Both the position numbers and the translations under genes were made by a program. A stretch of DNA of 64,000 nucleotides from Betaproteobacteria bacterium Ga0077523. GTDB lineage: Bacteria; Pseudomonadota; Gammaproteobacteria; Burkholderiales; Ga0077523. Location of the stretch: positions 148,090 through 212,089 of the forward strand of contig LNDQ01000108.1 in assembly GCA_001464695.1 (NCBI GenBank). The letters are read 5' to 3'. The notes beneath the pieces are model-generated. The model ran no database searches. It was not told the DNA's origin and saw nothing but the letters and a program-made list of their open reading frames with translations. Shown piece by piece: positions 1-55,710 of the stretch (positions are counted from its first letter, which is position 1; each line of letters begins with the position of its first letter).

Positions 1-568
1 CGGTATCGGCCGCCGACGCTGCCTCGCGCTCCGATCCGCGTGCCGTCGATGCCGGAGACTCCGTCCGGTTCGCGAATACCTTGGACTTGGGCACATCCGT
101 GAGCTCCGCTGGCGCCATCTCGTACTCGGGAGACCCGGCGCCAGCGGAGTCCTTGCTGGCCGGTTCCGGTCCCCGCGCTCGACCATCGGTTCGCCTGGCG
201 GCAACCATATCGTCGGTAGTGCTTGGGGGCGTCCGGGACGCGGACGGCGCGGCGGGCGGCGACGCGCCGGGTTGCTCCGGGTACGGCTCCACCGTCAAAC
301 CGGGCTCGCTGCCCCGATCGACCATCAGCGAAAGACTGGTCGCCACCACCAGGACCGCTGCGGCGGCCAGCGGCACCTGCCAGCGGCGCCAGGGTGACCG
401 GCCGACCAGCGTCGGCCGCGCACTCACCGCGCGACGCGCGGCGGCAAGAATGGCCGCGTCGACATGCGGCGGCGGCGCTTCCGCGACGGACTCCGCCCGC
501 AGTCGTTGGCGCGCAGCGGCCGTAGCCGCCAGCAGCTCGTCGAGTTCGCGGTCGGATTCCGGCGTCAT
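1..568 (-). CDS. putative anti-sigma factor (partial; C-terminus lies beyond the left window edge)
   Basis: My own minus-strand translation from the ATG at 566-568 gives MTPESDRELDELLAATAAARQRLRAES.... The start forms an ATGA overlap with the stop of the upstream ECF sigma gene. There is a single hydrophobic span (WQVPLAAAAVLVVATSLSLMV) and the frame stays open to position 1. It is absent from the ORF track, probably because it is truncated. Confidence 0.6.
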   Translation of the reverse strand, partial: MTPESDRELDELLAATAAARQRLRAESVAEAPPPHVDAAILAAARRAVSARPTLVGRSPWRRWQVPLAAAAVLVVATSLSLMVDRGSEPGLTVEPYPEQPGASPPAAPSASRTPPSTTDDMVAARRTDGRARGPEPASKDSAGAGSPEYEMAPAELTDVPKSKVFANRTESPASTARGSEREAASAADT

Positions 569-1143
569 CAATCCATCTCCCCGGCGAGTTCCGCGCGCAG
601 GCGGACTAGCGCATAGCGCAGACGGCTCTTGGCTGTCTCGCGCCCGACACCGGTCAGTTCGGCGATCTCCTCGAGTGTCAGCTCACCCTCTTCGTGCAGC
701 AGGAAAGCCTCGCGCTGCGCTGCCGGCAACCGCTCGACCGCATCGGCCACCCGTTCGAGACGGCGCTTCATCGCCACGGCCGCCTCCGGCTGCTCGCGCA
801 CCGGCGCCGCCAGACTCGCCGCGATGGTCTCGCCGGCCTCGTCATCAAGCGACACGGTGCCGCTGCCGTCGCGACGCAGCACGTCGATCATGCGATTGTG
901 CGCAATCTGATAGAGAAACGTCTTGAAGCGCGCTTCCACGCGATAGCGTTCGCGCGCGTTGATGAGATTCATCCAGGCATCCTGAAATACTTCCTCGGCC
1001 CGTGCCGCATCCCGCCCCATGCGCAGGCAGAATCGATAGAGCCCGCCCCGGTGGCGTTCGTAGAGGATCGCGAACGCCCCGGCATCGCCGTCATCGCGAT
1101 AACGCAGCATCAGCGCCTCGTCGGTCGGATCCGCGTCCGTCAT
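568..1143 (-). CDS. RNA polymerase ECF-type sigma-70 factor
   Basis: Translation from MTDADPTDEALMLRYRDDGDAGAFAILYERHRGGLYRFC shows region 2 (FQDAWMNLI, YQIAHNRMID) and region 4 (LPAAQREAFLLHEEGELTLEEIAELTGVGRETAKSRLRYA). I chose the ATG at 1141-1143 rather than the longer track ORF. Confidence 0.9.
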   Translation of the reverse strand: MTDADPTDEALMLRYRDDGDAGAFAILYERHRGGLYRFCLRMGRDAARAEEVFQDAWMNLINARERYRVEARFKTFLYQIAHNRMIDVLRRDGSGTVSLDDEAGETIAASLAAPVREQPEAAVAMKRRLERVADAVERLPAAQREAFLLHEEGELTLEEIAELTGVGRETAKSRLRYALVRLRAELAGEMD

Positions 1144-1432: not shown

Positions 1433-2254
1433 ATGAATGCTCAACGAATTGCCCCATTGGTGCTGTCGATCGCGCTCACCTGGGGTGCGAACGCCTGCGC
1501 CGCCGAACTGGCGGATGAGTATGACTGCCTCGTCGAAGCCCGCACCACCGCCGAGATCCGCAGCCCGATCGAAGGCCTGATCGAGCAGGTCCACGTCCGA
1601 CGGGGCGACTTCGTCCGCAAGGGCCAGGTGGTCGTCACCCTCGAGTCGGGGCCCGAACGGGCGGCGCTGGCGTTGGCCCGGTCCAAGGCCACCATGAAGG
1701 GGCCGCTCGAAGCCTCTGCGTCCCGACTCGACTTCGCTGTCAAGAAAGAGCAGCGCGCGATCGAACTCTACAAGCAGAAATTCGTCTCGGCCGGCGCGCT
1801 GGACGAAGCGCGCACCCAGCGCGAACTGGCGGAATCGGAGCTGAAGGAAGCGCGCGAGAACCAGAAACTGAACGAACTCGAGATGCAGCGCGCCGAGGAG
1901 GTGGTCAAGCTGCGCACCATCCGCAGCCCGTTCAACGGTGTGGTGATCGAGCGCTACCTTTCGAGCGGCGAATTCGCCACCGCCAACGTCAAGAATCCGA
2001 TCCTGAAGCTCGCCGAAGTGGACCCGCTCAACGTCGAAGTGATCCTGCCGGCCAACCTGTACGGCAAGATCAAGGTCGGTGCCCGCGCCAAGGTCGCACC
2101 CGAAGCACCCGGCGGCGAGTTCACCGCGGCGGTCGTGCTCGTGGACCGCGTCATCGATGCGGCCAGCGGTACCTTCGGCGTGCGCCTCGAACTGCCCAAC
2201 GCCAACCAGCAGATCCCGGCAGGCGCGAAGTGTCGCGTGAAGTTTCCGAAGTGA
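1433..2254 (+). CDS. HlyD/membrane-fusion-protein family periplasmic adaptor (secreted form)
   Basis: Signal peptide MNAQRIAPLVLSIALTWGANACAAE. Lipoyl-like hairpin halves (IRSPIEGLIEQVHVRRGDFVRKGQVVVTLE ... IRSPFNGVVIERYL) flank a coiled coil (ELAESELKEARENQKLNELEMQRAEE). An alternative ATG exists at 1403. Confidence 0.85.
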   Translation: MNAQRIAPLVLSIALTWGANACAAELADEYDCLVEARTTAEIRSPIEGLIEQVHVRRGDFVRKGQVVVTLESGPERAALALARSKATMKGPLEASASRLDFAVKKEQRAIELYKQKFVSAGALDEARTQRELAESELKEARENQKLNELEMQRAEEVVKLRTIRSPFNGVVIERYLSSGEFATANVKNPILKLAEVDPLNVEVILPANLYGKIKVGARAKVAPEAPGGEFTAAVVLVDRVIDAASGTFGVRLELPNANQQIPAGAKCRVKFPK

Positions 2255-2736
2255 TCCGGTCGGCGTTCATGGCCGTCGCGCTGCTCGCAGCGACGGCAGT
2301 CTCGCCCGTGGCTGCGCAACAGAATCAAGCGGCACTGACTGCGACCGTCCCTGCCGGCACTCACAAGACGCTGCGCTTGCGGAATCTGCCGAAGGACGCG
2401 CAGATCGCGGTCGCAGTCCAGGCCACCGGCCGCGTCGTCGTGACGTTTCTCACTGAAAGCGACTTCAAGCGCTATCCAAATCCGGAGGAGCCGGTGTTCA
2501 CCGCCCCGGTGGAGCGCCGCCTCTCCTTCGCGCTCGTCATGCCGGAGTCGGGCAACTACTATGTGGTGTTCGACAACACCAAGGGCACGGAAGAACGGAA
2601 GGTGCAGATGGTGATCCGCGCGGCGCGCGGCGCAGCGCAAGTGCCTGCGCCGGCCAATCCTTCAGCGCCAGGCGCCATCGTGCCCCCGGGACCACCACCA
2701 CCGACACAGCCGAAGGCGCAGCAGCACGACATGTAA
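2251..2736 (+). CDS. secreted protein of unknown function with Pro-rich C-terminal tail
   Basis: The GTG at 2251 forms a GTGA overlap with the adaptor stop (an alternative ATG lies at 2269). The signal peptide ends AVSPVAAQQ. The core is beta-rich and the tail reads PAPANPSAPGAIVPPGPPPPTQPK. I recognise no family. Confidence 0.6.
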   Translation: MIRSAFMAVALLAATAVSPVAAQQNQAALTATVPAGTHKTLRLRNLPKDAQIAVAVQATGRVVVTFLTESDFKRYPNPEEPVFTAPVERRLSFALVMPESGNYYVVFDNTKGTEERKVQMVIRAARGAAQVPAPANPSAPGAIVPPGPPPPTQPKAQQHDM

Positions 2737-2804
2737 GGTGCCGCGGCGATCAGGTCGCGGCGAATGTCTCTTGATCGCCGCGTGAATCTGTTCGGCCATC
2801 CGAG

Positions 2805-2899
2805 ATGCTCCGGGGTCAGAGATGCTCCGGGGTCAGGTCTTGCATTCATGCTCCGGGGTCAGGTCTTGCATTCATGCTCCGGGGTCAGGTCTTGCCTTC
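2805..2899. repeat. 26-bp tandem repeat (ATGCTCCGGGGTCAGGTCTTGCATTC), 3 full units plus 1 truncated unit
   Basis: Units at 2805-2819 (truncated), 2822-2847, 2848-2873 and 2874-2899. It lies in the 218-nt gap between two convergent stop codons (2736 and 2955). Confidence 0.9.
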
Positions 2900-2954
2900 A
2901 CGCATTCCCGCATCCTCACGACCAGACGAGCAGATCGCCACTTCCAACCATCGC

Positions 2955-4919
2955 CTACTCCGCCCGCCCCGCGAACGCCAGCAGATCTCCGAGATAATCG
3001 TCCATCTCGAGCACTTCCTTGCGCATCATGTAGTGCACCTGTTCGGCGCGTTTCTGCGCGAGGTTGAAGAGCAGCCGTCCGGCGTTCGCGTCCGACAATG
3101 CGCGTCCGAGCAGCTTGTGGAAGAAGCTGCCGTAGCGCTGGATCAGTTCGTCCTCGAGACTCACGAACACCTCGCAGCTTCCGGGGTCGCCCTGCCGTGC
3201 GCAGCGCCCGAAGAGCTGGCGATCGATACGGCCCGCTTCATTCATCTCGGTCGTGACCACGTGCAGGCCACCGGCTGCGAGTGACTCGGGGGTCAGTTTG
3301 ATATCGGTGCCGCGGCCTGCCATGTTGGTCGCCACGGTGATGCGGCCCGGTTGCCCGGCGGCGGCAACAATCTCCGCCTCTTCCTTGTCCTGTCGCGCAT
3401 TGAGCACGCGATGTTCAAGTCCTGCCGCCGTAAGAAGCGCCGCCAGACGCTCGGACGCTTCCACGGTCCGGGTGCCGACCAGCACCGGCCGACCCCGCTC
3501 GTGCTCGCGGCGGATCGACTCCAGCGCCGCCGCATACTTCTCCTCGAGCGTCGGCAGCAGCATCGGCGGTGCGATCCTGCGCAGCACCGGCTTGCGCGTC
3601 GGCACGCGCGTCACCTTGAGGCGATACACGGCCCAGAGCTCGGCCGAGATCTCCTTGGCAGTGCCGGTCATGCCGGACAATCGAAGATAGCGCCGGAAGA
3701 ACCGCTGGTACGAGATACGCGCCAGCGTCTCGCGCTGGCCGGTGAGTTCGCAACCTTCCTTCACCTCGATCAGCTGGTGCAGGCCACGCTCCCACGAGCG
3801 GTCCGCCATCGTGCGGCCGGTGTACTCGTCCACGATGACGATCTTGCCCTCTTCCACGAGGTAGTGCTTGTCGCGCTGGTACTGGTGCGTTGCCGACAGC
3901 GCCTGCTTCACGAGTTCCTCGCGCCGGTTGGGTCCGGTCCACAAGCCGCGCATGTCGGCGGCAAGCTCCTTCAATCGCTGTTTGCCGGTATCGGTGATAC
4001 GGATGCTGGTCTGGTGATGCTCGAGCACGAAATCCTCGTCACGCACGAGCTGCCCTGCGAGCCCGAGCGCTTCGCGATACAGGCGCTCCAGGCCCGAGTC
4101 GCCGGTGTCACCGGAGATGATGAGCGGCGTGCGCGCCTCGTCCACCAGGACGCTGTCGACCTCGTCGACGATCGCGAACGACAGTCCACGCAAGGTGAGA
4201 TCGCTGTCGCCGCCACCACCCGTGACCTTGTCGACGGCGTAGCGCAACGCGCGGGGCCGACCCTTCAGCTTCATGCGATCGCGCAGGTAGTCGAAGGTGA
4301 CGTCCTTGTTGGTGCAATACGTGATGTCGTTGCGGTACTGCGCGGGGCGATCTGGCAGCGCGACATCCTGGGTAACGCAGCCGACGGTGAGGCCGAGCGA
4401 GCGGTACAGCGGCCCCATCTCCTCGGCGTCGCGCGCGGCCAGGTAGTCGTTCACGGTCACCACATGCGTGGGCCACCCACCGAGCGCAGCGGTGGCGGCG
4501 GCGAGAGTTGCGGTGAGAGTCTTGCCTTCGCCGGTTTCCATCTCGGCGATGCGGCCCGACAGCAGGATCCAGCCGCCCGCCAGTTGGACGTCGTAGTGGC
4601 GCACACCGAGCGTGTGGCGGGCAGCAGCACGTACCAGCGCGAACGCCTGTGCGACCAGGGGATCGGTGAATCCGTCACGCTTCAGTTTCGGCCGCAGTTC
4701 CATGGCCCGCGCGCGCAACTGCTCCAGCGTCAGCTCGTCGCACTGCGGTCCCGCCGCGTTCACGGCGGCAATGAACGCATCGAAGCGGCCCTTGCGCATC
4801 GCATGCATCCGCTCGAGCCACAAGGCGGGGCGGCGGGCGGTGCGCTCCAGCCAGTTCTCGCGCGGTTCGAGCTTCTCCGGGTAGAACCCGTGACCGAGGA
4901 TCTGGGTGGTACTAGACAC
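2955..4919 (-). CDS. SecA-like DEAD-motor ATPase, C-terminally truncated relative to canonical SecA
   Basis: Walker A METGEGKTLTATL (GEGKT at 4518-4532), Walker B/DEAD FAIVDEVDSVLVDEARTPLIISG, and NBD2 motifs TNMAGRGTDIKL and GRCARQGDPGS. The protein is 654 aa and ends shortly after the start of the scaffold helix (AQKRAEQVHYMMRKEVLEMDDY). Its start overlaps the upstream gene by 8 nt. Confidence 0.85.
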   Translation of the reverse strand: MSSTTQILGHGFYPEKLEPRENWLERTARRPALWLERMHAMRKGRFDAFIAAVNAAGPQCDELTLEQLRARAMELRPKLKRDGFTDPLVAQAFALVRAAARHTLGVRHYDVQLAGGWILLSGRIAEMETGEGKTLTATLAAATAALGGWPTHVVTVNDYLAARDAEEMGPLYRSLGLTVGCVTQDVALPDRPAQYRNDITYCTNKDVTFDYLRDRMKLKGRPRALRYAVDKVTGGGGDSDLTLRGLSFAIVDEVDSVLVDEARTPLIISGDTGDSGLERLYREALGLAGQLVRDEDFVLEHHQTSIRITDTGKQRLKELAADMRGLWTGPNRREELVKQALSATHQYQRDKHYLVEEGKIVIVDEYTGRTMADRSWERGLHQLIEVKEGCELTGQRETLARISYQRFFRRYLRLSGMTGTAKEISAELWAVYRLKVTRVPTRKPVLRRIAPPMLLPTLEEKYAAALESIRREHERGRPVLVGTRTVEASERLAALLTAAGLEHRVLNARQDKEEAEIVAAAGQPGRITVATNMAGRGTDIKLTPESLAAGGLHVVTTEMNEAGRIDRQLFGRCARQGDPGSCEVFVSLEDELIQRYGSFFHKLLGRALSDANAGRLLFNLAQKRAEQVHYMMRKEVLEMDDYLGDLLAFAGRAE

Positions 4920-7059
4920 TGAAGCGCTTCAGGAACAAGCGCCGGACCGATCGAAAGGTCTGCGCCGCGAGCGGCTCGGCGTCGTGATCGAAGCGCACGA
5001 ACACGCGCCCGCCGATGTGCAGGTCGGAAGTGTTGGGCGGTAGTCGCAACTCGAAGTGGAATACCGGATCGAGCGCAACCGGTCGGTCGGTCTTGCGCGG
5101 ATCGAGCGGGATGGAGCCGCCGCCGCGGTCCGACAACGCGAGGCTCGGCAGCTCATTCGAAGCAGCCGGCACTTCACGGATCACCGAGGCGGTCAGGGTC
5201 TCCGCGACACGCTCGGTGAGCTTCACTTCGATCGATCGGGTGTGGCTGCGAACGTAGTCGACGTCGTCCTGGCGCACGATGACCCGCACGATGCGCTCCG
5301 ACGGCGGCGCCACGAAGCCCAGTTGTTCGCCCCGGCGCACGAACCGTAGCGGCATGTCGCTGGGGTTCGCCAGCACGAAGCGGCCGGCGGACGGCGCCGT
5401 CACGGTGAGCCCGGCCAGCCGCTCGCGCACGCGTTTGAGTTCCTTTTCCGTGTAGGCGATCTCGTCGCGCGTCATGCCGGCCTGCACGCGAGCGTCCTGC
5501 TGCAGCGCGCGCTGCTTGAAGTCGAGTTCTTCCAGCCGCGCTTCGAGTAACCGCTCCTGCGGTGCCAGCAGCGGATCTTCGATCTCGATCAGCGTGACGC
5601 CGGCGGCCACACTGGTACCCGGAGCGGTGGCGATACGCGTGACGAAGCCGTCGGCACCGGCGCGCACGACCGATTGGTCCGGCACCCACAGGACTCCTTC
5701 GGTGCGTGTCCATACCGGAAACGGCATGAGAAAGAAGGCACCCAGGAGGACGACGGCCGTCGAACCGGCCACCGTCCACGCCCGCTGCCGCCGGCGCCGC
5801 AGGGTCTTGCCGGACGCCAGATGGACGATGCCCTTGCCGATCGGCAGGAAGATCGACGAGAACCCGGCCCAGATGGCGAGGACCACGCCGATCACGAAAT
5901 ACTCACCGGCGATGAACAGGATGATCGCGAAGGTGATGAAGAGGCGATAGATGGTGGCCGAGATGGTGTAGCCGACGAACCAGCGCTTCTCGCCCTCGGT
6001 CGCTTCCGGCGCCTGCAACTCGCGCACGCCGAAGGCGTGCCGGTTGATGAGATAGAGGACGTACTTGTTGCCGCGCGGCCCGAGGTTGGGAATCTCGATC
6101 AGATCGGCCAGCATGTAGTAACCGTCGTAGCGCAACAACGGATTACCGTTGAACAGCACCGTGGAGATACCGGCGATCAGCATCACGTTGAAGGCCATCG
6201 CACGCACCAGGCCCGGCTCGACGTTGAGCCAGACGAACATCGCGATCGCCGCGAGCACCAGTTCCGCCATCATGCCGGCGCCGCCAACGACGAACCGCTC
6301 CCACTTGCTGCGGAAGGCCGACGAGGCCGATGCGTCGACGTAAGGTACGGGCAGGAACACGAGGAACATGACGCCCATCTCGTGAACTTCACCGCCTCTG
6401 GCGCGTACCGCGCACGCATGGCCGAACTCGTGCACCGTCTTCACGATCGGAAACAGCAAAAGCATGGTGAGCAGGTTGCTCGGCGCCAGCACGCGGTCCG
6501 ACAGGTTCTCGGTGAGCTCATGCCAGGAGAACGCCGCGGCGACGCACGCAGCCGCGACGATGGCCAACCAGACGAAGAACCCCCACCGGGAGAAGAGCGG
6601 AGCGTAGAAGCCATGGGTGGCGCGCAGAATCCGATCGGGGTCGATCAGCGGCAGCTTGATCGACATCGGGTTCTTGAAGTTGCGCCACCACTTGCCCTTC
6701 TGCTGTTTGCCATAGCGGCGCAGCAGCTCGTCGACGTCGGGCGGCAGATCGCTCTGCAGCAGGTCGGAACCGTGGAGCTGACCGAGCAGGCGGATCGATT
6801 CGTCCTGGGTCGGTGCGTCGTCGCCAAGTCGGTGGCAGGCGAGATCCCAGGCTTCCTGCACCGTGCGTTCGCCATCCAGCAGTCCGATCAACTGCCACGC
6901 GGCCGGGTTGAAGCGGTACATGCGGCGCGACGCGCGATCCTGCAGCACGTACCAGAGCTGGCCGCGGTAGTGGTGGCGGTGGACCTCCGCATGCGTCTTC
7001 AGCCGCGGCTTGAGTGCCGCGACGCGGTACCAGGAGGGGCTGTGGAGTTCGGAGCTCAT
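4912..7059 (-). CDS. fusion protein: PqqD/RRE-like N-domain, M50 (site-2 protease family) zinc metalloprotease membrane domain, HlyD-type adaptor C-domain
   Basis: Start MSSELHSPSWYR (ATG 7057-7059); the longer track ORF would run into a REP element. HEFGH is encoded at 6418-6432 inside a polytopic hydrophobic region. The N-terminus WYVLQDRASRRMYRFNPAAWQLIGLLDGERTVQEAWDL looks PqqD-like. The C-terminal third has lipoyl-like and coiled-coil features of membrane-fusion proteins. Confidence 0.85.
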   Translation of the reverse strand: MSSELHSPSWYRVAALKPRLKTHAEVHRHHYRGQLWYVLQDRASRRMYRFNPAAWQLIGLLDGERTVQEAWDLACHRLGDDAPTQDESIRLLGQLHGSDLLQSDLPPDVDELLRRYGKQQKGKWWRNFKNPMSIKLPLIDPDRILRATHGFYAPLFSRWGFFVWLAIVAAACVAAAFSWHELTENLSDRVLAPSNLLTMLLLFPIVKTVHEFGHACAVRARGGEVHEMGVMFLVFLPVPYVDASASSAFRSKWERFVVGGAGMMAELVLAAIAMFVWLNVEPGLVRAMAFNVMLIAGISTVLFNGNPLLRYDGYYMLADLIEIPNLGPRGNKYVLYLINRHAFGVRELQAPEATEGEKRWFVGYTISATIYRLFITFAIILFIAGEYFVIGVVLAIWAGFSSIFLPIGKGIVHLASGKTLRRRRQRAWTVAGSTAVVLLGAFFLMPFPVWTRTEGVLWVPDQSVVRAGADGFVTRIATAPGTSVAAGVTLIEIEDPLLAPQERLLEARLEELDFKQRALQQDARVQAGMTRDEIAYTEKELKRVRERLAGLTVTAPSAGRFVLANPSDMPLRFVRRGEQLGFVAPPSERIVRVIVRQDDVDYVRSHTRSIEVKLTERVAETLTASVIREVPAASNELPSLALSDRGGGSIPLDPRKTDRPVALDPVFHFELRLPPNTSDLHIGGRVFVRFDHDAEPLAAQTFRSVRRLFLKRFSV

Positions 7060-7085
7060 CGCGTCTGGCGCCGCCGAAAAATCTC

Positions 7086-7190
7086 TTCCACCACGAAGGA
7101 CTCGAAGGACACGAAGGGCCGCGAGGGAGGTCGCGGCTTGCCGGCCTTTCCTTCGTGCACCTTCGTGTCCTTCGAGTCCTTCGTGGTGAA
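7086..7190. repeat. REP-type long inverted repeat ('HEGLEGHEG/FVSFESFVV' element) inside the operon
   Basis: Arms at 7086-7117 and 7160-7190 are near-perfect reverse complements (about 30 bp). An inner hairpin GCCGCGA-GGGAGG-TCGCGGC lies at 7118-7137. The element sits in the 155-nt gap between gene 1 and gene 2 of the operon. Confidence 0.85.
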
Positions 7191-7214
7191 GCTTTGCATT
7201 GCTGTTCCCGCCAG

Positions 7215-9089
7215 CTAGGGCACCAGCGACCAAACCTGCAACCGCACCCAGTCCAGCAGGTACCGAGTCCAGATCCAGATCAGCTTCCGGTCGCCCACGC
7301 TCACCTTGCCCACACCTTCCATCCCGGGGCGCAGCCGTTCGATGCCGCGATCGAGCTTCGCTTCCACGCGGAAATAGTTGCGCCCGTCTTCCGGCGTGCT
7401 CACGGGAGTGACCCGCGCCACGGTGATCGGCTGCTTCTGCGAGGGCATCGACTGCAACACCAGTTCGCCCTTCTGGCCCACGGCCACGTCGCGGATGTCG
7501 CGCTCGTCCACTTTCAGCACCACGCGATAATCCTCGAGGGGCGCAATCTCGAACAACACGTCACCGCGCTGCACCGGCGCCCCCAGCTTCTGCGTGAGAT
7601 CGCCGCTCACCACTACGCCGTCGAACGGCGCGGCGATGACCGTGCGCGCGAGCTTTTCTTCCACGATGGCAAGTTCGGCTTCGGCCTGCTCCACCTGCGA
7701 ACCGATCACGCGGATGTCTGCGCGTTCATGGTTGGCGAGCGCTTCGCGATACTGCTTGGTGAGTTGCTCGCGCTTGGCCGACAGCTTCATGCGCTCCAGT
7801 TGCAGGTCACGATCCTCGAGGCGCGCCACGGCTTCGCCCTCCTTCACCAGGTCGCCGGGACGCTTGGCCGCTTCGCCGACGTAGCCATCGAAGGGTGCCG
7901 CCAGCGCCCGCTGGATCGAGCCCTCGACCTTGGTGTCCGCGGCGATGCGATACGTCCCGGTGGCGAACGTGAAGAACAGCGTGGCGACCGCAATGATGAT
8001 GGCGGCCAGCTTCCAGGCGACATGGCCCGGGCCGAAGAAGCGGAACCAGAGGGCCTTCATCGCATCCCACGTGCGCGCTGCCGGACCGCGGTCCGCCTCG
8101 CGCTGGATCTCGGTCAACGGACCGAGGAGAGCCGCGAGCCCGTCCGCCAGTTCGATGTCTTCGTGCGTGAACGGTCGGCTGCGCTCCAGGCACAACGCCC
8201 CGACGCCTTCGCCCATGCGCGTGAGAGGGATCGTCAACACCGCTGCCGACCCGTGGACCTGCGCGAGCTTCTCGTGGGCGCGCACAACGTGGCCCTCGAC
8301 GCCCTCCTCGCCCGGCCACACCAGCCGCGTCTTCTGATCGACCGCTTCGTCCATGGCGGTCTCGATGGCGCGGGTCAGCTCGGCATTCTTCTCGAACTGA
8401 ACCGTGTGCGACAGCGCCTTCACTTGCGAACGCTTCCCCCGCTGGATGCCGAGCGAGACGCGATCGCAGTCGAGCAGCGACGCAAGCTCGGTGGCAGTGG
8501 CGGTGGCCGCCGGCACGAAACCGTGGTGTTCCAGGGCGGCACTGAACACGTCGAACACCCGCCGCAACCTCGCGGCCGCCGCAGCATCCCCGGCGCCCAT
8601 GTGCCGGCGCAGCAGCGCCTCGAGCCAACCGGCACCCCACGCGAGGTCACGGGCAAGGCCCTTCAATTCGCGTTCGGCGCGTCCTTCCACGTCCACCGCG
8701 ACCGCACCGAGGACGGTGCCGTCGGCCTGGATCGGCTGGGCCACGTGCGACCTGGCACCGTTCTCACCGGCGGGGACAGCGATCAGCGCGTTTTCGTGGA
8801 TCGCACGCTCGATGGCCTCGCCGAGCTTGGCTCGATCGCGCTTGGTATCGGGCCAGACCGCGGCCGGAACGAATCCTCCACCGCCCGGCTGCGCCAAAAC
8901 CAGAATGCCGTCGGCCGCACCTGCCTTGATGCAGGTGACTGCGAGCCAGGCCTGGCAGAACGCTTCGGCGTTCTCGGCCTGGGCAAAACGCATCCACGCG
9001 TCGTCCTCGGCGGCAGCCCGCAGCCGTGCCGGATCGGCAACCTGGAGGTGCGGGCGTCCTTCCGCCGGCGTCGGCGTGGAAGAATTCAT
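7215..9089 (-). CDS. GAF-domain (probably two) - transmembrane - HlyD-family adaptor fusion protein
   Basis: Start MNSSTPTP (ATG 9087-9089) preceded by AAAGGAAATTCTCC. The N-terminal half resembles GAF domains (GILVLAQPGGGGFVPAAVWPD...; LLDCDRVSLGIQRGKRSQVKAL...GALCLERSRPF). TM helix WKLAAIIIAVATLFFTF. The adaptor core has lipoyl-like halves and a coiled coil. Confidence 0.8.
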   Translation of the reverse strand: MNSSTPTPAEGRPHLQVADPARLRAAAEDDAWMRFAQAENAEAFCQAWLAVTCIKAGAADGILVLAQPGGGGFVPAAVWPDTKRDRAKLGEAIERAIHENALIAVPAGENGARSHVAQPIQADGTVLGAVAVDVEGRAERELKGLARDLAWGAGWLEALLRRHMGAGDAAAAARLRRVFDVFSAALEHHGFVPAATATATELASLLDCDRVSLGIQRGKRSQVKALSHTVQFEKNAELTRAIETAMDEAVDQKTRLVWPGEEGVEGHVVRAHEKLAQVHGSAAVLTIPLTRMGEGVGALCLERSRPFTHEDIELADGLAALLGPLTEIQREADRGPAARTWDAMKALWFRFFGPGHVAWKLAAIIIAVATLFFTFATGTYRIAADTKVEGSIQRALAAPFDGYVGEAAKRPGDLVKEGEAVARLEDRDLQLERMKLSAKREQLTKQYREALANHERADIRVIGSQVEQAEAELAIVEEKLARTVIAAPFDGVVVSGDLTQKLGAPVQRGDVLFEIAPLEDYRVVLKVDERDIRDVAVGQKGELVLQSMPSQKQPITVARVTPVSTPEDGRNYFRVEAKLDRGIERLRPGMEGVGKVSVGDRKLIWIWTRYLLDWVRLQVWSLVP

Positions 9090-9158
9090 GGAGAATTTCC
9101 TTTTTTTATCAGTAGCCTGAGGGTCTGGACTGGCAACCTCTGGAAGCATACACCTGCA

Positions 9159-9174
9159 AGCACAGGACCTGCCA
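9159..9174 (-). promoter_or_regulatory. candidate sigma-54 (-24/-12) promoter TGGCAG-N5-GTGCT upstream of the GAF-HlyD operon
   Basis: The minus-strand sequence TGGCAGGTCCTGTGCT matches TGGCAC-N5-TTGCW at the key GG/GC positions with correct spacing. It lies about 70 nt upstream of the ATG at 9089. No enhancer-binding protein is present in the window. Confidence 0.25.
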
Positions 9175-9182
9175 GAATCTCC

Positions 9183-9935
9183 TTACGGCAAGGCTTCGCG
9201 ATCCTTCCAGGGAAATCCCAGCCGCGTCACACCCGCCCGAATCTCGCCCATGGCAGTCTCGACCACGGCAGCATCGCCCCTCACCCCCAGTTCGATGTGC
9301 CGTCCCTCGGCACCGATGTGCGGCAGGCTGAACAGCTTCAGCGTCGGATAGCGCTGCACGATGTCCTGCATGAGGTCGATCAGCTGGCTCTCGCCGGCCT
9401 CGCGCACGATGATGGCCTCGTCCCGCTCGCGCGAGGTGCTATGCAGGTGCGCGTAACGCTGGTCCAGAACCCATTCCATCATCGGCCACGCCATCTCCGG
9501 AAAGCCCGGCAGGAAATGGTGATCGCCGTAGCTGAATCCCGGCACCCGGTTGTACGGGTTCGGAATGATCCGCGCACCGACGGGAAACTCCCCCATGAGT
9601 ATGCGTTTGGGGTAGGCCTCGGCGCCGAAGCGCGCCTCGATTTCGGCCTTCGCCTCGGGATGCAGCGCCAGTTGCACCCCGCCCGCCTCGGCTGCCGCCT
9701 GGCGCGTGTGGTCATCGGGGGTGGCACCGATCCCGCCGAAACTGAACACGATGTCGCTCGTCGCGAACGTGCGAAACAGCGTCTCGACGATCAGCCGCCG
9801 GTCGTCGCCGAGGTAATGGGCCCAGGCCAGCGCGAGGCCGCGCTGGCGGAGCAGTTCGATTGCCTTGGCGAGATGTTTGTCCTGCCGCTTGCCGGACAGG
9901 ATCTCGTCGCCGATGATGAGTACGCCGAACGCCAT
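9183..9935 (-). CDS. CinA-like / MoCF-biosynthesis (molybdopterin-binding) domain protein
   Basis: MAFGVLIIGDEILSGKRQDKHL...DIVFSFGGIGATPDDHTRQA is typical of the MoaB/MogA/CinA N-domain fold. I chose the ATG at 9933-9935. Confidence 0.75.
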   Translation of the reverse strand: MAFGVLIIGDEILSGKRQDKHLAKAIELLRQRGLALAWAHYLGDDRRLIVETLFRTFATSDIVFSFGGIGATPDDHTRQAAAEAGGVQLALHPEAKAEIEARFGAEAYPKRILMGEFPVGARIIPNPYNRVPGFSYGDHHFLPGFPEMAWPMMEWVLDQRYAHLHSTSRERDEAIIVREAGESQLIDLMQDIVQRYPTLKLFSLPHIGAEGRHIELGVRGDAAVVETAMGEIRAGVTRLGFPWKDREALP

Positions 9936-10026
9936 GGGTGCAATCCGCGAAGATGACGCGGACATCATAAGCGGCCGAGGCGAAGAGTGCGGCTGGGCCG
10001 GGGCCTGGCAACGCGGGGAACGGACC

Positions 10027-10272
10027 CTAGGTGCAACCCTCGTCGGCCCTGGCCGGCCGGCATTCGAGCCGCGTCTTGTCGGCGTTGCCGACGCACTTGT
10101 AAATGCTGTCCTTGCAGCGTGCGCACCACACCGTGGTGCTGCCCTCGCGCTTGTATTGGCTGTTGAGAATGTCGAGGTCGGTACGCCGACAACCGACGGC
10201 ATCGGCCGTGCGCGAAATCTGCGTGGCGCATCCCGCGAGCGCAAGCAATACGAATAGGCAAGCGTATCTCAT
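10027..10272 (-). CDS. small Cys-rich lipoprotein, unknown function
   Basis: Lipobox in MRYACLFVLLALAGC. The mature part is 81 aa with 8 Cys. An alternative start lies at 10281. Confidence 0.55.
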   Translation of the reverse strand: MRYACLFVLLALAGCATQISRTADAVGCRRTDLDILNSQYKREGSTTVWCARCKDSIYKCVGNADKTRLECRPARADEGCT

Positions 10273-10373
10273 CGATGTCATTCTTCGAGACGCCGACGAC
10301 CCCGCAGAATGAGCGGCGCGCAACGCGCGTCCGCTCGATTCCGCGGAAGTTGAGGGTCGGCTCCGCCGGCCCT

Positions 10374-10802
10374 CTAACCGGCTATGTATTGTTCGAGTTG
10401 TTCGATCGTCTGCCGCTGATCCGCGATCGTCTCCTTGACCACGTCCCCGATCGAAATCACGCCGGTCACCCGGTTCGCATCCAGCACCGGGAGGTGCCGC
10501 ACGCGCTTGTCGGTCATCAACCCCATGCACTCTTCCATGGTCGCGGTCGGCGGCACGCACAATACTTTCTCGGTCATGATCTCGCGCACCTGCGTCTCGC
10601 GCGAAGACTTGCCGAAGAGGATCACCTTACGTGCATAGTCGCGCTCGGAAAAGATCCCCGCCAACCGCTCGCCCTCCAGCACCAGCAGGGCCCCGACATC
10701 GCGCTCCGCCATGAGCTTGAGCGCGTCATAGACCGACGAGGTCGGCGCCACCGACAATACCTTGACCTTCTTTTCTTCCAGGACCTGTTCCACGGTCTTC
10801 AT
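10374..10802 (-). CDS. CBS-pair domain protein
   Basis: Two CBS repeats (VAPTSSVYDALKLMAERDVGALLVL; MEECMGLMTDKRVRHLPVLD...GVISIGDVV). Confidence 0.85.
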   Translation of the reverse strand: MKTVEQVLEEKKVKVLSVAPTSSVYDALKLMAERDVGALLVLEGERLAGIFSERDYARKVILFGKSSRETQVREIMTEKVLCVPPTATMEECMGLMTDKRVRHLPVLDANRVTGVISIGDVVKETIADQRQTIEQLEQYIAG

Positions 10803-17752: not shown

Positions 17753-19144
17753 TCAATGATTGGCACGACGGCGGGTCGCGGCACCGGCCAGAACGGCGAG
17801 ACCGAGACCCATGAAGCCCCAAGTGCCCGGCTCGGGGACGGGCATCGCCACATCCGCCCACACCGCGCGATGGTCCGAAGTGGGGAATCCGCTGAACAGA
17901 TTCGGATTGCCGAAGGTGCCGACGAGCGGGAACAGGGGATCCGTCGATTCCGGCCAGAACACGCCGCTGCCGACGATGGTCGTGTTGCTCGACGGCAGCA
18001 CGTAGTCGACGCGCAGATTGCCCGCGGCCGTCCCGGCCGGCGTGTCGGCGAAGTCGGCGGTGTCATAGCGGGGATCGCCGACGTCGTTCGCATTGGCACC
18101 GCCCTGCAGGGCGGACTGCTCGGTGCCGCCGGGGGCTTGCGGCGTCACGCTCGTATTCACCTTCGGATCGTTCAGCAGTTGTCCGATGGCGTTGAACGGT
18201 GCATCGCGAAAGCTGTCGCCGTCGAGCAGGTCGGCGTTGTAGTCGCCCGCGATCACGAATACGGCGTCGGACGTCAGCCCACCGGTACCGCCCTGGTCGT
18301 CGTAGATATACGAAGCGCCATTGACGTAGTCCTTCCAGAAGCGGATTTCGTCGTGGTTGCGCTTGCCGTTGCGATCTTCCGAGCCGTCGAACACCGGCGG
18401 TGTCGGATGCGCGGTGAGAAAATGCACCTCCTGCCCGTCGATGTTGAGGACCACGTCGACGTGATTCTTGGAGGACAGGCGCAGCACGTCGATCTCCTCG
18501 GGCGAGTAGAACGCCGCGAGATCATTCGCGGTGGGATCGCTGGTGAGCAGGTTGTCCGGCATGTCCTTCCACAGGAAATTCTGGAAGGTGCGCACGCCGA
18601 CGATCTCGTACTTCGAATAGATCGTCATCCCGAACTGCCCGGCGAAGTTGCCGAAGCCGAAGGCGTCGTCGCCGCCGCCGATGGAACCGTTGTTGTTGAG
18701 ATCGAAACCCGAGGCGATCCCGGTGTTCGTGGTCGGCGTGTAGCCGTACGCATACGAGATGGCGCTTGCCCCGCCCTGCGGAACGCCGAGGAAGTTGCTC
18801 TGGAAGCGCTGGTGCGCGAGGCTCGTGTAGCCGAGCGCGTTCGCCGTGCTCGAAGAGCCTGCGATGCCCGCGTGGTCGTGATCGAACTCGTTGATGAGCA
18901 CTACATCCGGTGCGATGCGCTGGATGACCTGCGCGACGTTCTGCGCCTGGAGGATGCGCCGGGAAACCGGATCCCCGAGACCCGCTCCGGCCGGGTTCGC
19001 GAGATCCGACAGGAGCTCGCCCGACGCATTGCGGTTGAGCGACGCGTTGAACGTGGCGAAGCGGACTGTGGTCGCCGTTTCCGACTGGGCCGCAACCGCG
19101 ACCGGCAGGACGAGCAGCGCTGACGCAAGGATTCTGATGGCCAT
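17753..19144 (-). CDS. endonuclease/exonuclease/phosphatase (EEP) family protein with PEP-CTERM anchor
   Basis: Start MAIRILAS preceded by GAGGAGG. EEP hallmarks are FATFNASLNR, INEFD, GDYNAD and SDHRAVWADV. C-terminal PEP-CTERM VPEPGTWGFMGLGLAVLAGAATRRR. Confidence 0.8.
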   Translation of the reverse strand: MAIRILASALLVLPVAVAAQSETATTVRFATFNASLNRNASGELLSDLANPAGAGLGDPVSRRILQAQNVAQVIQRIAPDVVLINEFDHDHAGIAGSSSTANALGYTSLAHQRFQSNFLGVPQGGASAISYAYGYTPTTNTGIASGFDLNNNGSIGGGDDAFGFGNFAGQFGMTIYSKYEIVGVRTFQNFLWKDMPDNLLTSDPTANDLAAFYSPEEIDVLRLSSKNHVDVVLNIDGQEVHFLTAHPTPPVFDGSEDRNGKRNHDEIRFWKDYVNGASYIYDDQGGTGGLTSDAVFVIAGDYNADLLDGDSFRDAPFNAIGQLLNDPKVNTSVTPQAPGGTEQSALQGGANANDVGDPRYDTADFADTPAGTAAGNLRVDYVLPSSNTTIVGSGVFWPESTDPLFPLVGTFGNPNLFSGFPTSDHRAVWADVAMPVPEPGTWGFMGLGLAVLAGAATRRRANH

Positions 19145-19382
19145 CGGGTTGCCTCCTCGGGATCGACCGCCTGCGAAGACTTCATGCCTGGCGGATAGCG
19201 AGGCAAGCCTAGGGGACCGATTTGACAATCCGGTTCCGCGGTCCGGCAGAAGGCGTAAGCCGATGGAATCACCGGGCAAAACGTAGTTCTTTCGGATCAC
19301 TCACCACATCAGACCAATGTCACACGGCGTGGGTACTTTCAGGAGTCAGGCCCACACCCAAGAACAGCAACCGGAGACCACC

Positions 19383-21020
19383 ATGGCCGTTTCACATCGA
19401 TTGATGCCGACACTGCTCGGCGTCCTCTTCCTCACCACCGCCGGAACGACACCTGCCGCCGGTCCGATCCAGGCGGTCGAGAAGCAATGGTCCTTCGACC
19501 ATTTCGCCGCCAACGCCGGCCGCTCCTCCGAGATCGTGGCGTTCGACGGTGCCAACCAGAATCTCTGGGTGATCGGCGGCAACGGCATCGACGTGCTCGA
19601 CCTCGGTGGCAATCTGTTGAAGTCCTTCGAGACCACCAGCGTGTACGGCGGCGTGAACAGCATCTCGATTCGCAACGGCGTGGCGGCCGTCGCCTTCGGC
19701 AACGCCGTCGCGCGCGACGGTCTCGGCAGCGTGCAGTTCTTCGACACCACTGCGTTCCTCAGTGCCGCCACCGTCGGCGCCGCCAATCTCGGCGGTGTCG
19801 CCGTCGGCAACGTACCCGACATGGTGACCTGGAGTGCCGACGGCTCCATGGTGCTCGTTGCCAATGAAGGCGAGCGCTACGTGGCTTCGGGCACGACGTT
19901 CAATCCGGCCGGCAGCGTCAGCATCATCGACTTCAACGCAGCGGCACCGGGCAGCTCGGTCGTGCATACGGTCGGCTTCACCGCCTTCGACGGACAGGAG
20001 TCGGCGTTGCGCTCGGCTGGCGTGCGGATTCAGGCCGGGCTCGCGGCATCGATCGCGCTCGAACCGGAGTACATCGCGATCTCACCCGACGGCAACACGG
20101 CCCACGTGACGCTGCAGGAAGCCAATGCGATCGGCGTCCTCGACCTCAACACCAGGACCTTCACGAGCATCGTGCCGCTGGGCCTCAAGGACTACAGCCT
20201 GCCCGGCAACCAGATCGATCCCACCGACCAGGACGCCGGCGTGGCGTTCCGCAACGTGCCGGTAAAGAGCATGTACATGCCCGACGGCATCGCTTCCTAC
20301 TCCGCGGGCGGCAGCACGTTCTACGTCATGGCGAACGAGGGCGACGCATTCACCGACGACGGCGACCTGCGCCGCCTCAGCAGTTCCGCAATCGTCCTGG
20401 ATCCGACAGCGTTCCCGAACGCTGCCGACCTCAAGCAGCCGGGTAACCTCGGGCGTCTCAATGTGTCGCTGATCGGTGCGGACGGCCTCGGCGCAGGGCC
20501 TACCGGATTCACCGAAATCGTTTCTTACGGTGGCCGTTCCTTCTCGATCCGCGACGCCAATGGCGCGTTGGTCTTCGACAGCGGCGACATCCTCGACAAG
20601 CAGGCCCACGCGCTCGGCCTGTACGCCGACGGTCGCAGCGACGACAAGGGCGTCGAGCCCGAGGGCGTCGCCTTGTTCACGATCGCCGGTCGCACGCTCG
20701 CCTTCATCGGAATGGAGCGCACCACGCGCAGCGCAGTCGCCGTGTTCGACATCACCGATCCGGCCAACGCGACCTTCCTGCAGATGATCGTCGGCGATCT
20801 CGCCTCGGAAGTCCGGCCCGAAGGTCTGCTCGCCTTCGAGGCCAACGGGAAGATCTTTCTCGCGGTCGCCAACGAGGCGCTGGAGGACATTCCCACCGCC
20901 GCCGGCTCGAACCGGACCGTCCTCTACGAGATCACGCCGGTGCCGGAACCTTCGACCTATGCACTAATGGGTCTCGGTCTTGTCGGCCTGGGGTGGGTCG
21001 CACGGCGCAAACGCGGCTAG
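19383..21020 (+). CDS. choice-of-anchor-I-like / alkaline-phosphatase-like beta-propeller protein with PEP-CTERM anchor
   Basis: Signal peptide. Repeated motifs PDMVTWSADGSMVLVANEGE, EPEYIAISPDGNTAHVTLQEANAIGVLD, MANEGDA, EPEGVALF and AVANE. C-terminal VPEPSTYALMGLGLVGLGWVARRKRG. Confidence 0.7.
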   Translation: MAVSHRLMPTLLGVLFLTTAGTTPAAGPIQAVEKQWSFDHFAANAGRSSEIVAFDGANQNLWVIGGNGIDVLDLGGNLLKSFETTSVYGGVNSISIRNGVAAVAFGNAVARDGLGSVQFFDTTAFLSAATVGAANLGGVAVGNVPDMVTWSADGSMVLVANEGERYVASGTTFNPAGSVSIIDFNAAAPGSSVVHTVGFTAFDGQESALRSAGVRIQAGLAASIALEPEYIAISPDGNTAHVTLQEANAIGVLDLNTRTFTSIVPLGLKDYSLPGNQIDPTDQDAGVAFRNVPVKSMYMPDGIASYSAGGSTFYVMANEGDAFTDDGDLRRLSSSAIVLDPTAFPNAADLKQPGNLGRLNVSLIGADGLGAGPTGFTEIVSYGGRSFSIRDANGALVFDSGDILDKQAHALGLYADGRSDDKGVEPEGVALFTIAGRTLAFIGMERTTRSAVAVFDITDPANATFLQMIVGDLASEVRPEGLLAFEANGKIFLAVANEALEDIPTAAGSNRTVLYEITPVPEPSTYALMGLGLVGLGWVARRKRG

Positions 21021-35753: not shown

Positions 35754-35872
35754 AGCCCCCACCCCAACCCTCCCCCACCTTCGGCGGGGGAGGGAGCGTA
35801 CTACTCTGCCCCGTCACCTGAGGCACTCCCTCCCCCACCTTCGGTGGGGGAGGGCTGGGGTGGGGGCAAACG
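35754..35872. repeat. G/C-rich REP element pair (inverted dimer), copy 2
   Basis: GCCCCCACCCCAACCCTCCCCCACCTTCGGCGGGGGAGGGA and its inverted partner TCCCTCCCCCACCTTCGGTGGGGGAGGGCTGGGGTGGGGGC. Confidence 0.85.
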
Positions 35873-55565: not shown

Positions 55566-55710
55566 TTCTCCCTTCTCCCTCCGGGAGAAGGGTCGGGGAT
55601 GAGGGGGACCACCCAGACACCTCGCAGAGGTCGGCGCAGCCGGCCTCTCCCCGCGGGAGAGGGAGGTACACTCCCTTCTCCCTTCGGGAGAAGGGTTGGG
55701 GATGAGGGAA
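55566..55710. repeat. REP elements of the 'CTCCCTTCTCCC-loop-GGGAGAAGGG..GGGGATGAGGG' family (3 hairpin units)
   Basis: TTCTCCCTTCTCCCTCCGGGAGAAGGGTCGGGGATGAGGGGG, CCTCTCCCCGCGGGAGAGGGAGG and CTCCCTTCTCCCTTCGGGAGAAGGGTTGGGGATGAGGG. Confidence 0.85.

Follow-up and report, generated by a model that had tools for sequence, protein, structure and literature searches.

The closest described counterpart of the locus considered here is a gene module around a "secondary SecA_DEAD" protein, reported by Kamneva, Poudel and Ward (Kamneva et al., 2015, PLoS One; PMC4452313). Along with a Peptidase_M50 protein and HlyD proteins, the module includes a GAF protein that has HlyD and biotin_lipoyl domains as well; a type-I-secretion-related function has been proposed, where SecA_DEAD would be the ATPase and the M50 protein would supply the membrane component, and a regulatory or sensory role has been ascribed to the GAF protein. 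For Methylobacterium extorquens AM1 the source describes an internal terminator located downstream of the GAF gene, and it notes OEP genes in some module loci. In the literature after 2015 we have found no functional study of the module or of the GAF–HlyD protein. Here we analyze a 64,000-nt stretch of the genome of Betaproteobacteria bacterium Ga0077523 (contig LNDQ01000108.1, positions 148,090–212,089 of the forward strand; further referred to as the window), which contains a gene encoding such a protein, the GAF–HlyD adaptor (Table 1). This protein, encoded in a genome of the Burkholderiales type, is orthologous to the "cluster 3" GAF/HlyD protein of Kamneva et al. (e.g., META1p2402 of M. 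extorquens AM1). It has the same GAF, HlyD and biotin_lipoyl content, its module has the same gene order (GAF followed by Peptidase_M50, SecA_DEAD and HlyD), the proposed role (regulatory or sensory) and type of system (related to type I secretion) coincide, and there is no essential difference. The window protein is a correctly identified, ordinary member of an already published, functionally uncharacterised family, and its architecture, described in 2015, is common in databases. To the earlier account we add a cryptic second GAF domain (GAF-A), a map of conserved residues, a PqqD/RRE-like domain in the M50 protein, an RLS motif in the fourth gene of the module, which encodes another HlyD paralogue, a DUF3467 gene as a frequent fifth member, and a much wider distribution.

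Among the experimentally studied adaptors, Escherichia coli HlyD resembles the window protein in its layout: an N-terminal cytoplasmic segment is followed by a single transmembrane (TM) helix and, in the periplasm, by an adaptor with lipoyl, helical and barrel parts. To recognise its substrate and to assemble with TolC, E. coli HlyD needs its cytoplasmic part. That part is approximately 60 residues long and has no known fold, whereas the window protein has approximately 356 cytoplasmic residues of tandem GAF. The partner of E. coli HlyD is an ABC transporter, while the module in the window encodes none. Moreover, E. coli HlyD carries an RLT motif for TolC binding (RLS/RLT motifs have been defined by experiment for MacA, AcrA and HlyD; PMC3391258), and the window protein has no such motif at the tip of its hairpin. 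The sequence-only reading of this region had assumed that adaptors normally have a short cytoplasmic N-terminus; this is true of RND adaptors and does not extend to those of ABC, MFS and type I secretion systems (T1SS), which as a rule have a TM helix at the N-terminus, along with sizable cytoplasmic domains of uncharacterised structure that are essential for recognising the substrate and for assembly (Chem Rev, 2021; PMC8277102). That an adaptor has a cytoplasmic domain is therefore less exceptional, and it is a folded tandem sensor domain that is unusual.

The longest open reading frame (ORF) version of the gene begins at 9149 and has the same end. We favour the ATG at 9089, because it is preceded at approximately 8 nt by an AGGAAA Shine–Dalgarno sequence, because public databases hold a 624-aa protein that is 100% identical to the resulting product, and because homologues, both close and distant, have lengths of approximately 620–636 aa (database search). 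With this start the TM helix is preceded by about 356 residues; the long N-terminal region was read correctly from the sequence, and the figure of about 370 residues given there fits the longer ORF. The structure of the full-length protein has been modelled with AlphaFold2 (AF2) using an alignment of 62 homologues (mean pLDDT 83.9). In this model an alpha/beta module (residues 20–138), a long helix (139–186), a second alpha/beta module (187–308), stalk helices (309–352), the TM helix (357–375), a lipoyl/hairpin/beta-barrel adaptor and a C-terminal helix (603–622) follow each other in that order. The five-part composition, that is, a cytoplasmic tandem GAF, a helical stalk, one TM helix, a periplasmic HlyD/membrane-fusion (MFP) adaptor and a Trp-rich C-terminal helix, has thus been confirmed. 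With GAF domains of cytoplasmic type N-terminal and HlyD domains of periplasmic type C-terminal of one TM helix, the protein is a single-pass type II membrane protein, N-in/C-out.

The second of the two GAF modules, GAF-B, is matched by the Pfam model GAF (PF01590) with 53.1 bits at a gathering score of 22.4 (E 6e-14), and also exceeds the thresholds of GAF_3 (36.7 vs. 27) and GAF_2 (31.2 vs. 28.6), the GAF matches spanning residues 195–323 in the 624-aa numbering. Residues 20–138, on the contrary, match no Pfam model. As Foldseek searches with the full-length model are dominated by the adaptor half, GAF-A was modelled separately (AF2, residues 1–185, pLDDT 82.7, pTM 0.74). The top 50 Foldseek matches of this model in the PDB are essentially all GAF domains, with the best E-value of 1.3e-5 for NifA (8jrc); the others include Nlh1 (4g3k), Nlh2, 3e0y, PtsP (3ci6/3trc), phytochromes and PDE5/6, and TM-scores to target are at most 0.66. 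The structures closest to GAF-A are the GAFs of NifA, Nlh1 and PtsP; in sequence, no solved GAF is more than marginally similar (E > 0.1). The sequence-only reading, which had two GAF-like modules before the single TM helix, is therefore borne out, GAF-B by Pfam and GAF-A by AF2 and Foldseek, and its own refuting case, no GAF-like fold predicted for the N-terminal region, did not occur. An internal duplication has been tried as a relation between the modules: profile comparison by hhalign aligns them colinearly but weakly (P = 0.0015, probability 6.7%), so the homology of GAF-A to GAF domains rests on the fold search.

To map conserved residues, we used 102 diverse cluster representatives, 28–40% identical to the query across the N-terminal region; all percentages of conservation below refer to this set. 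In GAF-A, residues W48, L49, P80 and P119 are kept at 96% or above. The connecting helix carries the most conserved N-terminal motif of the family, RQLQWGAGWLE, in which W151, G152 and W155 (W-G-x-x-W) are kept at 90–95%. GAF-B retains the beta2-alpha3-beta3-alpha4 elements in the AF2 model, and on these pocket-forming elements sit near-invariant polar residues, S227 (99%), E248 (99%), Q252 (95%), E302 (92%), D251 (89%) and H272 (88%); M246 falls within the same 88–99% band. A binding site in GAF-B, for a metabolite or for a protein, is thus a plausible prediction. A search with the family profile against PDB sequences for a liganded GAF relative gave only marginal matches, with E > 0.1 (3e0y, 3o5y, PtsP, PDE6); as no solved GAF is near enough in sequence, no ligand can be transferred. 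The pair C45/C53 has been considered as a redox, metal or chromophore site and rejected: it appeared conserved among close homologues only, and in the representative set C45 is kept at 32% and C53 at 75%.

With residues 1–355 as a query, 328 clusters at 50% identity are retrieved at E <= 1e-30, and nearly all of them are approximately 620 aa long, hence the tandem GAF and the adaptor form an old, fixed fusion. Moreover, the region 30–355 is conserved as a single unit, and the conservation of the GAF region across several phyla is as strong as that of many catalytic domains. A similar arrangement of two GAF folds on a long helix leading to a downstream effector is known for the tandem GAFs of PDE2/5/6 and cyanobacterial CyaB1/2. 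In these proteins, as well as in the single-GAF proteins NifA, Nlh1/2 and PtsP, the effector is an enzyme or ATPase of the same chain, whereas in the window protein it is a membrane-spanning adaptor.

In the stalk region the conserved residues are G323, P324 and G353. The count of lysines and arginines flanking the TM helix is 2.8 before and 1.8 after it; K360, kept at 96%, is the sole conserved residue noted in the helix, and no conserved Pro, Asn or Gly residues, which would break it, are found there. On the periplasmic side, the C-terminal half matches Pfam HlyD_3 (74 bits) and HlyD_D23 (57 bits), narrowly passes the NCBIfam model RND_mfp (96.5 vs. the cut-off of 94.9), and is far below the cut-offs of the NCBIfam models of type I HlyD, EmrA, MacA and CusB (e.g., 55.7 bits vs. 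208.65 for type_I_hlyD, TIGR01843). Foldseek with the full-length model yields adaptors only, with E-values from 1e-15 to 1e-11 for MacA, EmrA, MexA and ZneB. Fusion to a membrane-fusion (HlyD) adaptor, also noted from the sequence, thus holds at the levels of both profiles and folds. The best sequence and fold matches to the periplasmic half are MacA/EmrA (4dk0, E 4.6e-12; 3fpp, E 1.5e-15), which are likewise anchored by an N-terminal TM helix. Unlike them, the window protein has a much shorter alpha-hairpin (residues 427–453 and 456–481 in the AF2 model, approximately 27 per helix), a large cytoplasmic sensor-type domain, no cognate transporter, and a Trp-rich C-terminal helix instead of a membrane-proximal domain, which is absent from the AF2 model. 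In this C-terminal helix and just after it, W605, I606, W607, W614, W620 and P624 are invariant or nearly so. The RLS/RLT pattern (RxxxLxxxxxx[ST]) has no match in the window protein; in its homologues it is seen solely at residue 427 or 433, at the base of the first helix, and never at the hairpin tip.

The family has at least 572 confirmed relatives, counted in one genome per species (species representatives), whose hosts are labelled as Beta-, Alpha-, Gamma- and Deltaproteobacteria, Nitrospirota, Rokuibacteriota, Myxococcota and others; the hosts of the module in the literature further include Planctomycetes, Verrucomicrobia and Chlorobi. Database entries are annotated as "RND family efflux transporter MFP subunit" or as "HlyD family efflux transporter periplasmic adaptor". 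Synteny was counted in the best 80 genome loci. The gene of the M50–HlyD protein lies directly downstream of the GAF–HlyD gene in 79 of the 79 loci where the contig continues, the gene of the SecA-like protein then comes in every locus that is long enough, and the fourth HlyD gene is present downstream, on either strand, in most of the 80 loci. In a reverse survey of metagenome loci centred on the M50–HlyD protein, a GAF domain is encoded upstream in 46 of 47 loci and a SecA-like protein downstream in 48 of 48. The sole exception (L097, 1–3836) has the M50–HlyD and SecA-like genes without a preceding GAF–HlyD gene, and instead contains an opposite-strand ORF resembling an outer-membrane protein, as judged from its translation, and a lipoprotein-like ORF. 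GAF–HlyD is linked almost obligately to the M50–HlyD and SecA-like genes, whichever side the survey starts from, which answers how often the architecture co-occurs with the M50 fusion; these two genes are also the next two downstream in the window, as had been read from the sequence.

The M50–HlyD protein retains intact catalytic motifs, HEFGH at residue 210 and NGNPLLRYDG at residue 304 (HExxH and NxxPxxxxDG). Its PqqD/RRE-like domain occupies residues 37–101, is found in 14 of 20 orthologues (best E 1.8e-7), and does not figure in the available part of the 2015 account of the module (PMC4452313). The protein also aligns to the NCBIfam model daptide_HExxH (NF041824) over 356 of 379 profile positions with E 1e-44, its score of 153 being below the equivalog cut-off of 300. 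Together, the PqqD/RRE-like domain and the resemblance to a daptide protease point to peptide recognition as a probable function of this partner. The SecA-like protein keeps both nucleotide-binding domains, NBD1 and NBD2, and PPXD, and is devoid of most of the scaffold and wing domains and of the C-terminal tail, with the SecA_SW match limited to profile positions 13–35 of 200; it scores under every SecA/SecA2 equivalog cut-off. The periplasmic HlyD paralogue has an RLS-type TolC-docking motif, RAIELYKQKFVS, at residues 108–119, the midpoint (tip) of its longer hairpin, and this motif is kept in at least 33 of 50 orthologues. As no RLS/RLT motif is found at the hairpin tip of the M50–HlyD partner either, the occurrence of RLS on the periplasmic paralogue, and not on GAF–HlyD or M50–HlyD, suggests that the three HlyD adaptors divide the labour between them.

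One more gene, encoding a DUF3467 protein (PF11950, E 1e-23) of approximately 105–115 aa, is located immediately upstream of GAF–HlyD on the same strand in 44 of the 80 genome loci, sometimes in two copies (in L012–L078, e.g., L012:4783–5103 and L014:9619–9939), and is detected by tblastn in 23 of 80 metagenome loci centred on the M50–HlyD gene; neither the window nor its closest relatives, L001–L011, have it. The N-terminal tail of the protein varies and its core is highly conserved (YANVCNV.STREEVV..FG.NQAW...LSPFAAKRL); it has no sequence relative in the PDB. It is possibly a fifth component of the module, cargo or chaperone. A SecB-like chaperone, an idea prompted by an LFPYAR-like patch, is not supported: hhalign against an approximate E. 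coli SecB sequence aligns only 16 residues (P = 0.14). Finally, a SapC-family gene (PF07277, E 1.9e-71), also not present in the window, adjoins the module in 14 of 160 loci (L022:9730–10521, L034, L044, L057, L084, etc.). The name of this family comes from the Campylobacter S-layer (type I) secretion locus.

Based on these data, we tentatively favour the role of a cytoplasm-facing regulatory or coupling (sensing) adaptor of a four-gene envelope-directed export module, giving this interpretation slightly less than an even chance. GAF–HlyD and the HlyD domain of the M50 protein would form an inner-membrane-proximal adaptor ring, and the periplasmic fourth paralogue would contact an unlinked outer-membrane channel. 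GAF-B might sense a cytoplasmic signal, either a small ligand or else the SecA-like motor or peptide substrate once engaged, while GAF-A and the connecting helix with its WGAGW motif might mediate dimerisation or contacts with a partner. The signal would then be transmitted via the stalk and the TM helix to control the assembly or opening of a periplasmic conduit. A parallel to this step is provided by E. coli HlyD, whose short cytoplasmic domain couples substrate binding to TolC recruitment. The SecA-like motor would dock onto the cytoplasmic domains of the complex, because the parts that bind SecY have been lost. The cargo would most likely be a peptide or protein, recognised by the PqqD/RRE-like domain, cut at the M50 site and driven by the SecA-like ATPase. 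The SapC-family genes beside the module are counted in favour of export. In this setting, the "ligand-gated assembly" of the envelope-spanning part, suggested by the sequence-only reading, is plausible.

Several observations weigh against such a role. Neither a ligand or substrate nor an outer-membrane partner or membrane channel emerged from the analysis. The cyclic-nucleotide signature NKFDE (NK..F...DE) is present in none of the 62 homologues in their N-terminal 380 residues, hence the search for cyclic-nucleotide contacts, also proposed from the sequence, came out negative; this distinguishes the window protein from the tandem GAFs of PDE and CyaB, as does the reduction of GAF-A to approximately 120 residues. 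In the AF2 model only about 5 residues separate beta3 and beta4 of GAF-A, leaving no lid helix, and the domain therefore probably has no enclosed pocket and may be a structural or dimerisation module. The conserved residues of GAF-B could form a protein–protein interface rather than a ligand site. As the full-length model has a pTM of 0.40, the relative arrangement of its domains is unreliable. No ABC, RND or MFS transporter gene is found beside the adaptor gene in the window or as a conserved neighbour in the 80 loci, and conserved precursor-like small ORFs (25–90 aa), sought in 160 loci, turned out to be only antisense shadows of other genes. To our knowledge, proteases of the site-2 type (S2P) do not serve as cargo conduits. 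Known experimental data on the family are limited to a microarray reanalysis in M. extorquens (PMC4452313).

Some of the same features are what one would expect if the tandem GAF senses nothing and is a passive dimerisation and docking platform that keeps the truncated SecA-like ATPase at the complex in the membrane. Having lost nearly all of its scaffold and wing domains and the C-terminal tail, this ATPase would need a new membrane receptor; the top N-terminal motif, WGAGW, with small-residue packing, is on the connecting helix and not in a pocket; GAF-A has no lid; and the best structural matches are the GAFs of NifA and Nlh1/2, which act via contacts with an ATPase domain. What argues against a purely passive platform is GAF-B, with its lid elements and near-invariant S227, E248, D251, Q252, H272 and E302, typical of a binding site. 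Besides, docking and sensing can coexist. We consider the passive platform possible, if doubtful.

Another explanation, which we regard as improbable, makes GAF–HlyD the substrate of the neighbouring M50 protease, so that regulated intramembrane proteolysis would free the tandem GAF as a cytoplasmic signal. S2P proteases prefer the single-pass N-in/C-out topology, which GAF–HlyD has; its gene is immediately upstream of that of a protease with intact catalytic motifs, and a gene of an extracytoplasmic function (ECF) sigma factor is nearby. However, Pfam recognises no output domain in the released fragment that would bind DNA or a sigma factor, the TM helix is devoid of conserved helix-breaking residues, and the ECF sigma gene is kept at the same position only in the closest relatives (L001 and L003). 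Moreover, the PqqD/RRE-like domain points to a soluble peptide substrate, and three HlyD paralogues and a SecA-like motor are left unexplained. An ordinary drug-efflux MFP of the RND/MacA type with an incidental GAF region, as the database annotations, the narrow pass of RND_mfp and the closest folds (MacA, EmrA and MexA) would have it, is effectively refuted by synteny and very improbable, given that the M50–HlyD and SecA-like genes, and not RND, ABC or MFS ones, are always the conserved neighbours, that the membrane-proximal domain and the RLS tip motif are absent, and that the GAF region is strongly conserved across several phyla.

The sensing adaptor may be extended to the entire locus. 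In this rather unlikely but possible scenario, the four genes would encode an uncharacterised class of envelope-spanning machines for the processing and export of peptides or proteins, in which the ABC transporter of T1SS or of systems with peptidase-containing ABC transporters (PCATs) gives way to a truncated SecA motor together with an intramembrane metalloprotease that bears an RRE, the three HlyD paralogues share the adaptor role, the tandem GAF acts as an inside-out gate coupling a metabolite or cargo-engagement signal to conduit assembly, and DUF3467 might be a cargo or chaperone. PCATs with HlyD-type accessory proteins and daptide-type RRE HExxH proteases provide an analogy at the system level only, that is, a peptide-recognising protease coupled to an ATPase and HlyD-type adaptors. 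The window module differs from PCATs in having an intramembrane metalloprotease and not a C39 cysteine peptidase, and a SecA-like ATPase and not an ABC nucleotide-binding domain; moreover, the loci contain neither a gene for a precursor peptide nor modifying enzymes.

The module is present at hundreds of places across genomes. If it is a SecA-like-driven secretion or processing machine without SecY, this would be a new solution for crossing the Gram-negative envelope, and the GAF adaptor would be a rare case of an adaptor protein bearing its own cytoplasmic sensor. The finding itself is of modest value, as the architecture was read correctly and had been published previously; the module is of more interest as an unsolved system. 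The useful outputs are a sharper anatomy, a set of residues to consider for mutagenesis, and the suggested split of tasks between the three HlyD paralogues.

GAF–HlyD is the first gene of the GAF–HlyD/M50–HlyD/SecA-like trio, in agreement with the sequence-only reading, whereas the promoter-proximal position that it assigned to the gene finds no confirmation: a same-strand CinA-like gene stops 93 nt before the start codon of the adaptor, with housekeeping thioredoxin 2 and HrpA genes beyond it, and in 44 of the 80 loci the DUF3467 gene comes first. A scan of 2600–10400 for sigma-70 promoters found none, and terminator-like sites in the same region were no more frequent than the shuffle expectation. 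The 166-nt region between the adaptor and M50–HlyD genes folds with –89.4 kcal/mol (z = –7.6) and contains a stem-loop. In related loci the spacing between these genes is mostly below 40 nt, and 12 of 26 loci with gaps of at least 40 nt are strongly structured. The stem-loop may set differential expression of the adaptor and the downstream genes, similarly to the internal terminator in M. extorquens. No conserved OEP-sized cluster is observed within ±10 kb in the 80 loci, the rest of the window not having been scanned for OEP; outer-membrane factor genes in general are often unlinked.

Downstream of the operon, an accessory gene encodes a small secreted protein with a Pro-rich C-terminus. It overlaps with the periplasmic HlyD gene at the end of the latter, beside which it is found in approximately 20 of 80 loci (tblastn synteny). 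In the convergent intergenic region between the stop of this gene (2736) and that of the SecA-like gene (2955) we observe a tandem repeat of at least three copies of approximately 26–29 nt (ATGCTCCGGGGTCAGGTCTTGCATTC; 2806–2900, plus strand), which looks like a REP-like or terminator-region element.

Table 1. Coordinates of the GAF–HlyD adaptor gene, its protein segments and neighbouring elements in the window.
Feature	Coordinates	Strand	Size or residues	Evidence and remarks
GAF-GAF-TM-HlyD adaptor gene	7215..9089	–	624 aa plus stop	ORF and Shine–Dalgarno
GAF-A, cryptic minimal GAF fold without lid helix	8676..9032	–	20–138	AF2 and Foldseek
Connecting helix	8532..8675	–	139–186 (48 residues)	DSSP on AF2 model; carries RQLQWGAGWLE
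GAF-B, canonical GAF with lid elements	8166..8531	–	187–308	Pfam
Two stalk helices, GAF-B to TM	8022..8165	–	309–333, 336–352	AF2 secondary structure
Single TM helix VAWKLAAIIIAVATLFFTF	7965..8021	–	357–375	Kyte–Doolittle maximum 2.14
Periplasmic adaptor: lipoyl domain, short alpha-hairpin, beta-barrel	7284..7964	–		Pfam, NCBIfam, Foldseek
Trp-rich amphipathic C-terminal helix KLIWIWTRYLLDWVRLQVWSLVP	7218..7283	–	603–622	AF2
Intercistronic stem-loop, adaptor gene stop (7215) to M50–HlyD start (7059)	7089..7188	–	40-nt arms	Arms 90% complementary
PqqD/RRE-like domain + M50-type intramembrane metalloprotease + C-terminal HlyD domain (M50–HlyD)	4912..7059	–	715 aa	Pfam Peptidase_M50, PqqD, HlyD_3
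Shortened SecA-like ATPase	2955..4919	–	654 aa	SecA_DEAD 341 bits, SecA_PP_bind, P-loop_SecA
Small secreted beta-sandwich-like protein	2230..2736	+	168 aa	Signal-peptide-like N-terminus; weak sub-threshold DUF1883/GOLD matches
Periplasmic HlyD paralogue with signal peptide	1433..2254	+		Pfam HlyD_D23, HlyD_3, Biotin_lipoyl_2; convergent to the operon
ECF-type sigma-70 family gene	568..1143	–		Divergent from the periplasmic HlyD gene

Outside this locus, the window encodes two PEP-CTERM-anchored secreted proteins, one of the endonuclease/exonuclease/phosphatase family (17753–19300, minus strand) and one of the choice-of-anchor I type (19317–21020, plus strand), which implies an exosortase system in this organism. 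A long G/C-rich inverted repeat at 35755–35867 has 42-nt arms, 88% complementary, a 29-nt spacer, and GGGGAGGG / CCCTCCCC tracts, and a second, similar inverted repeat is located at 55570–55695.

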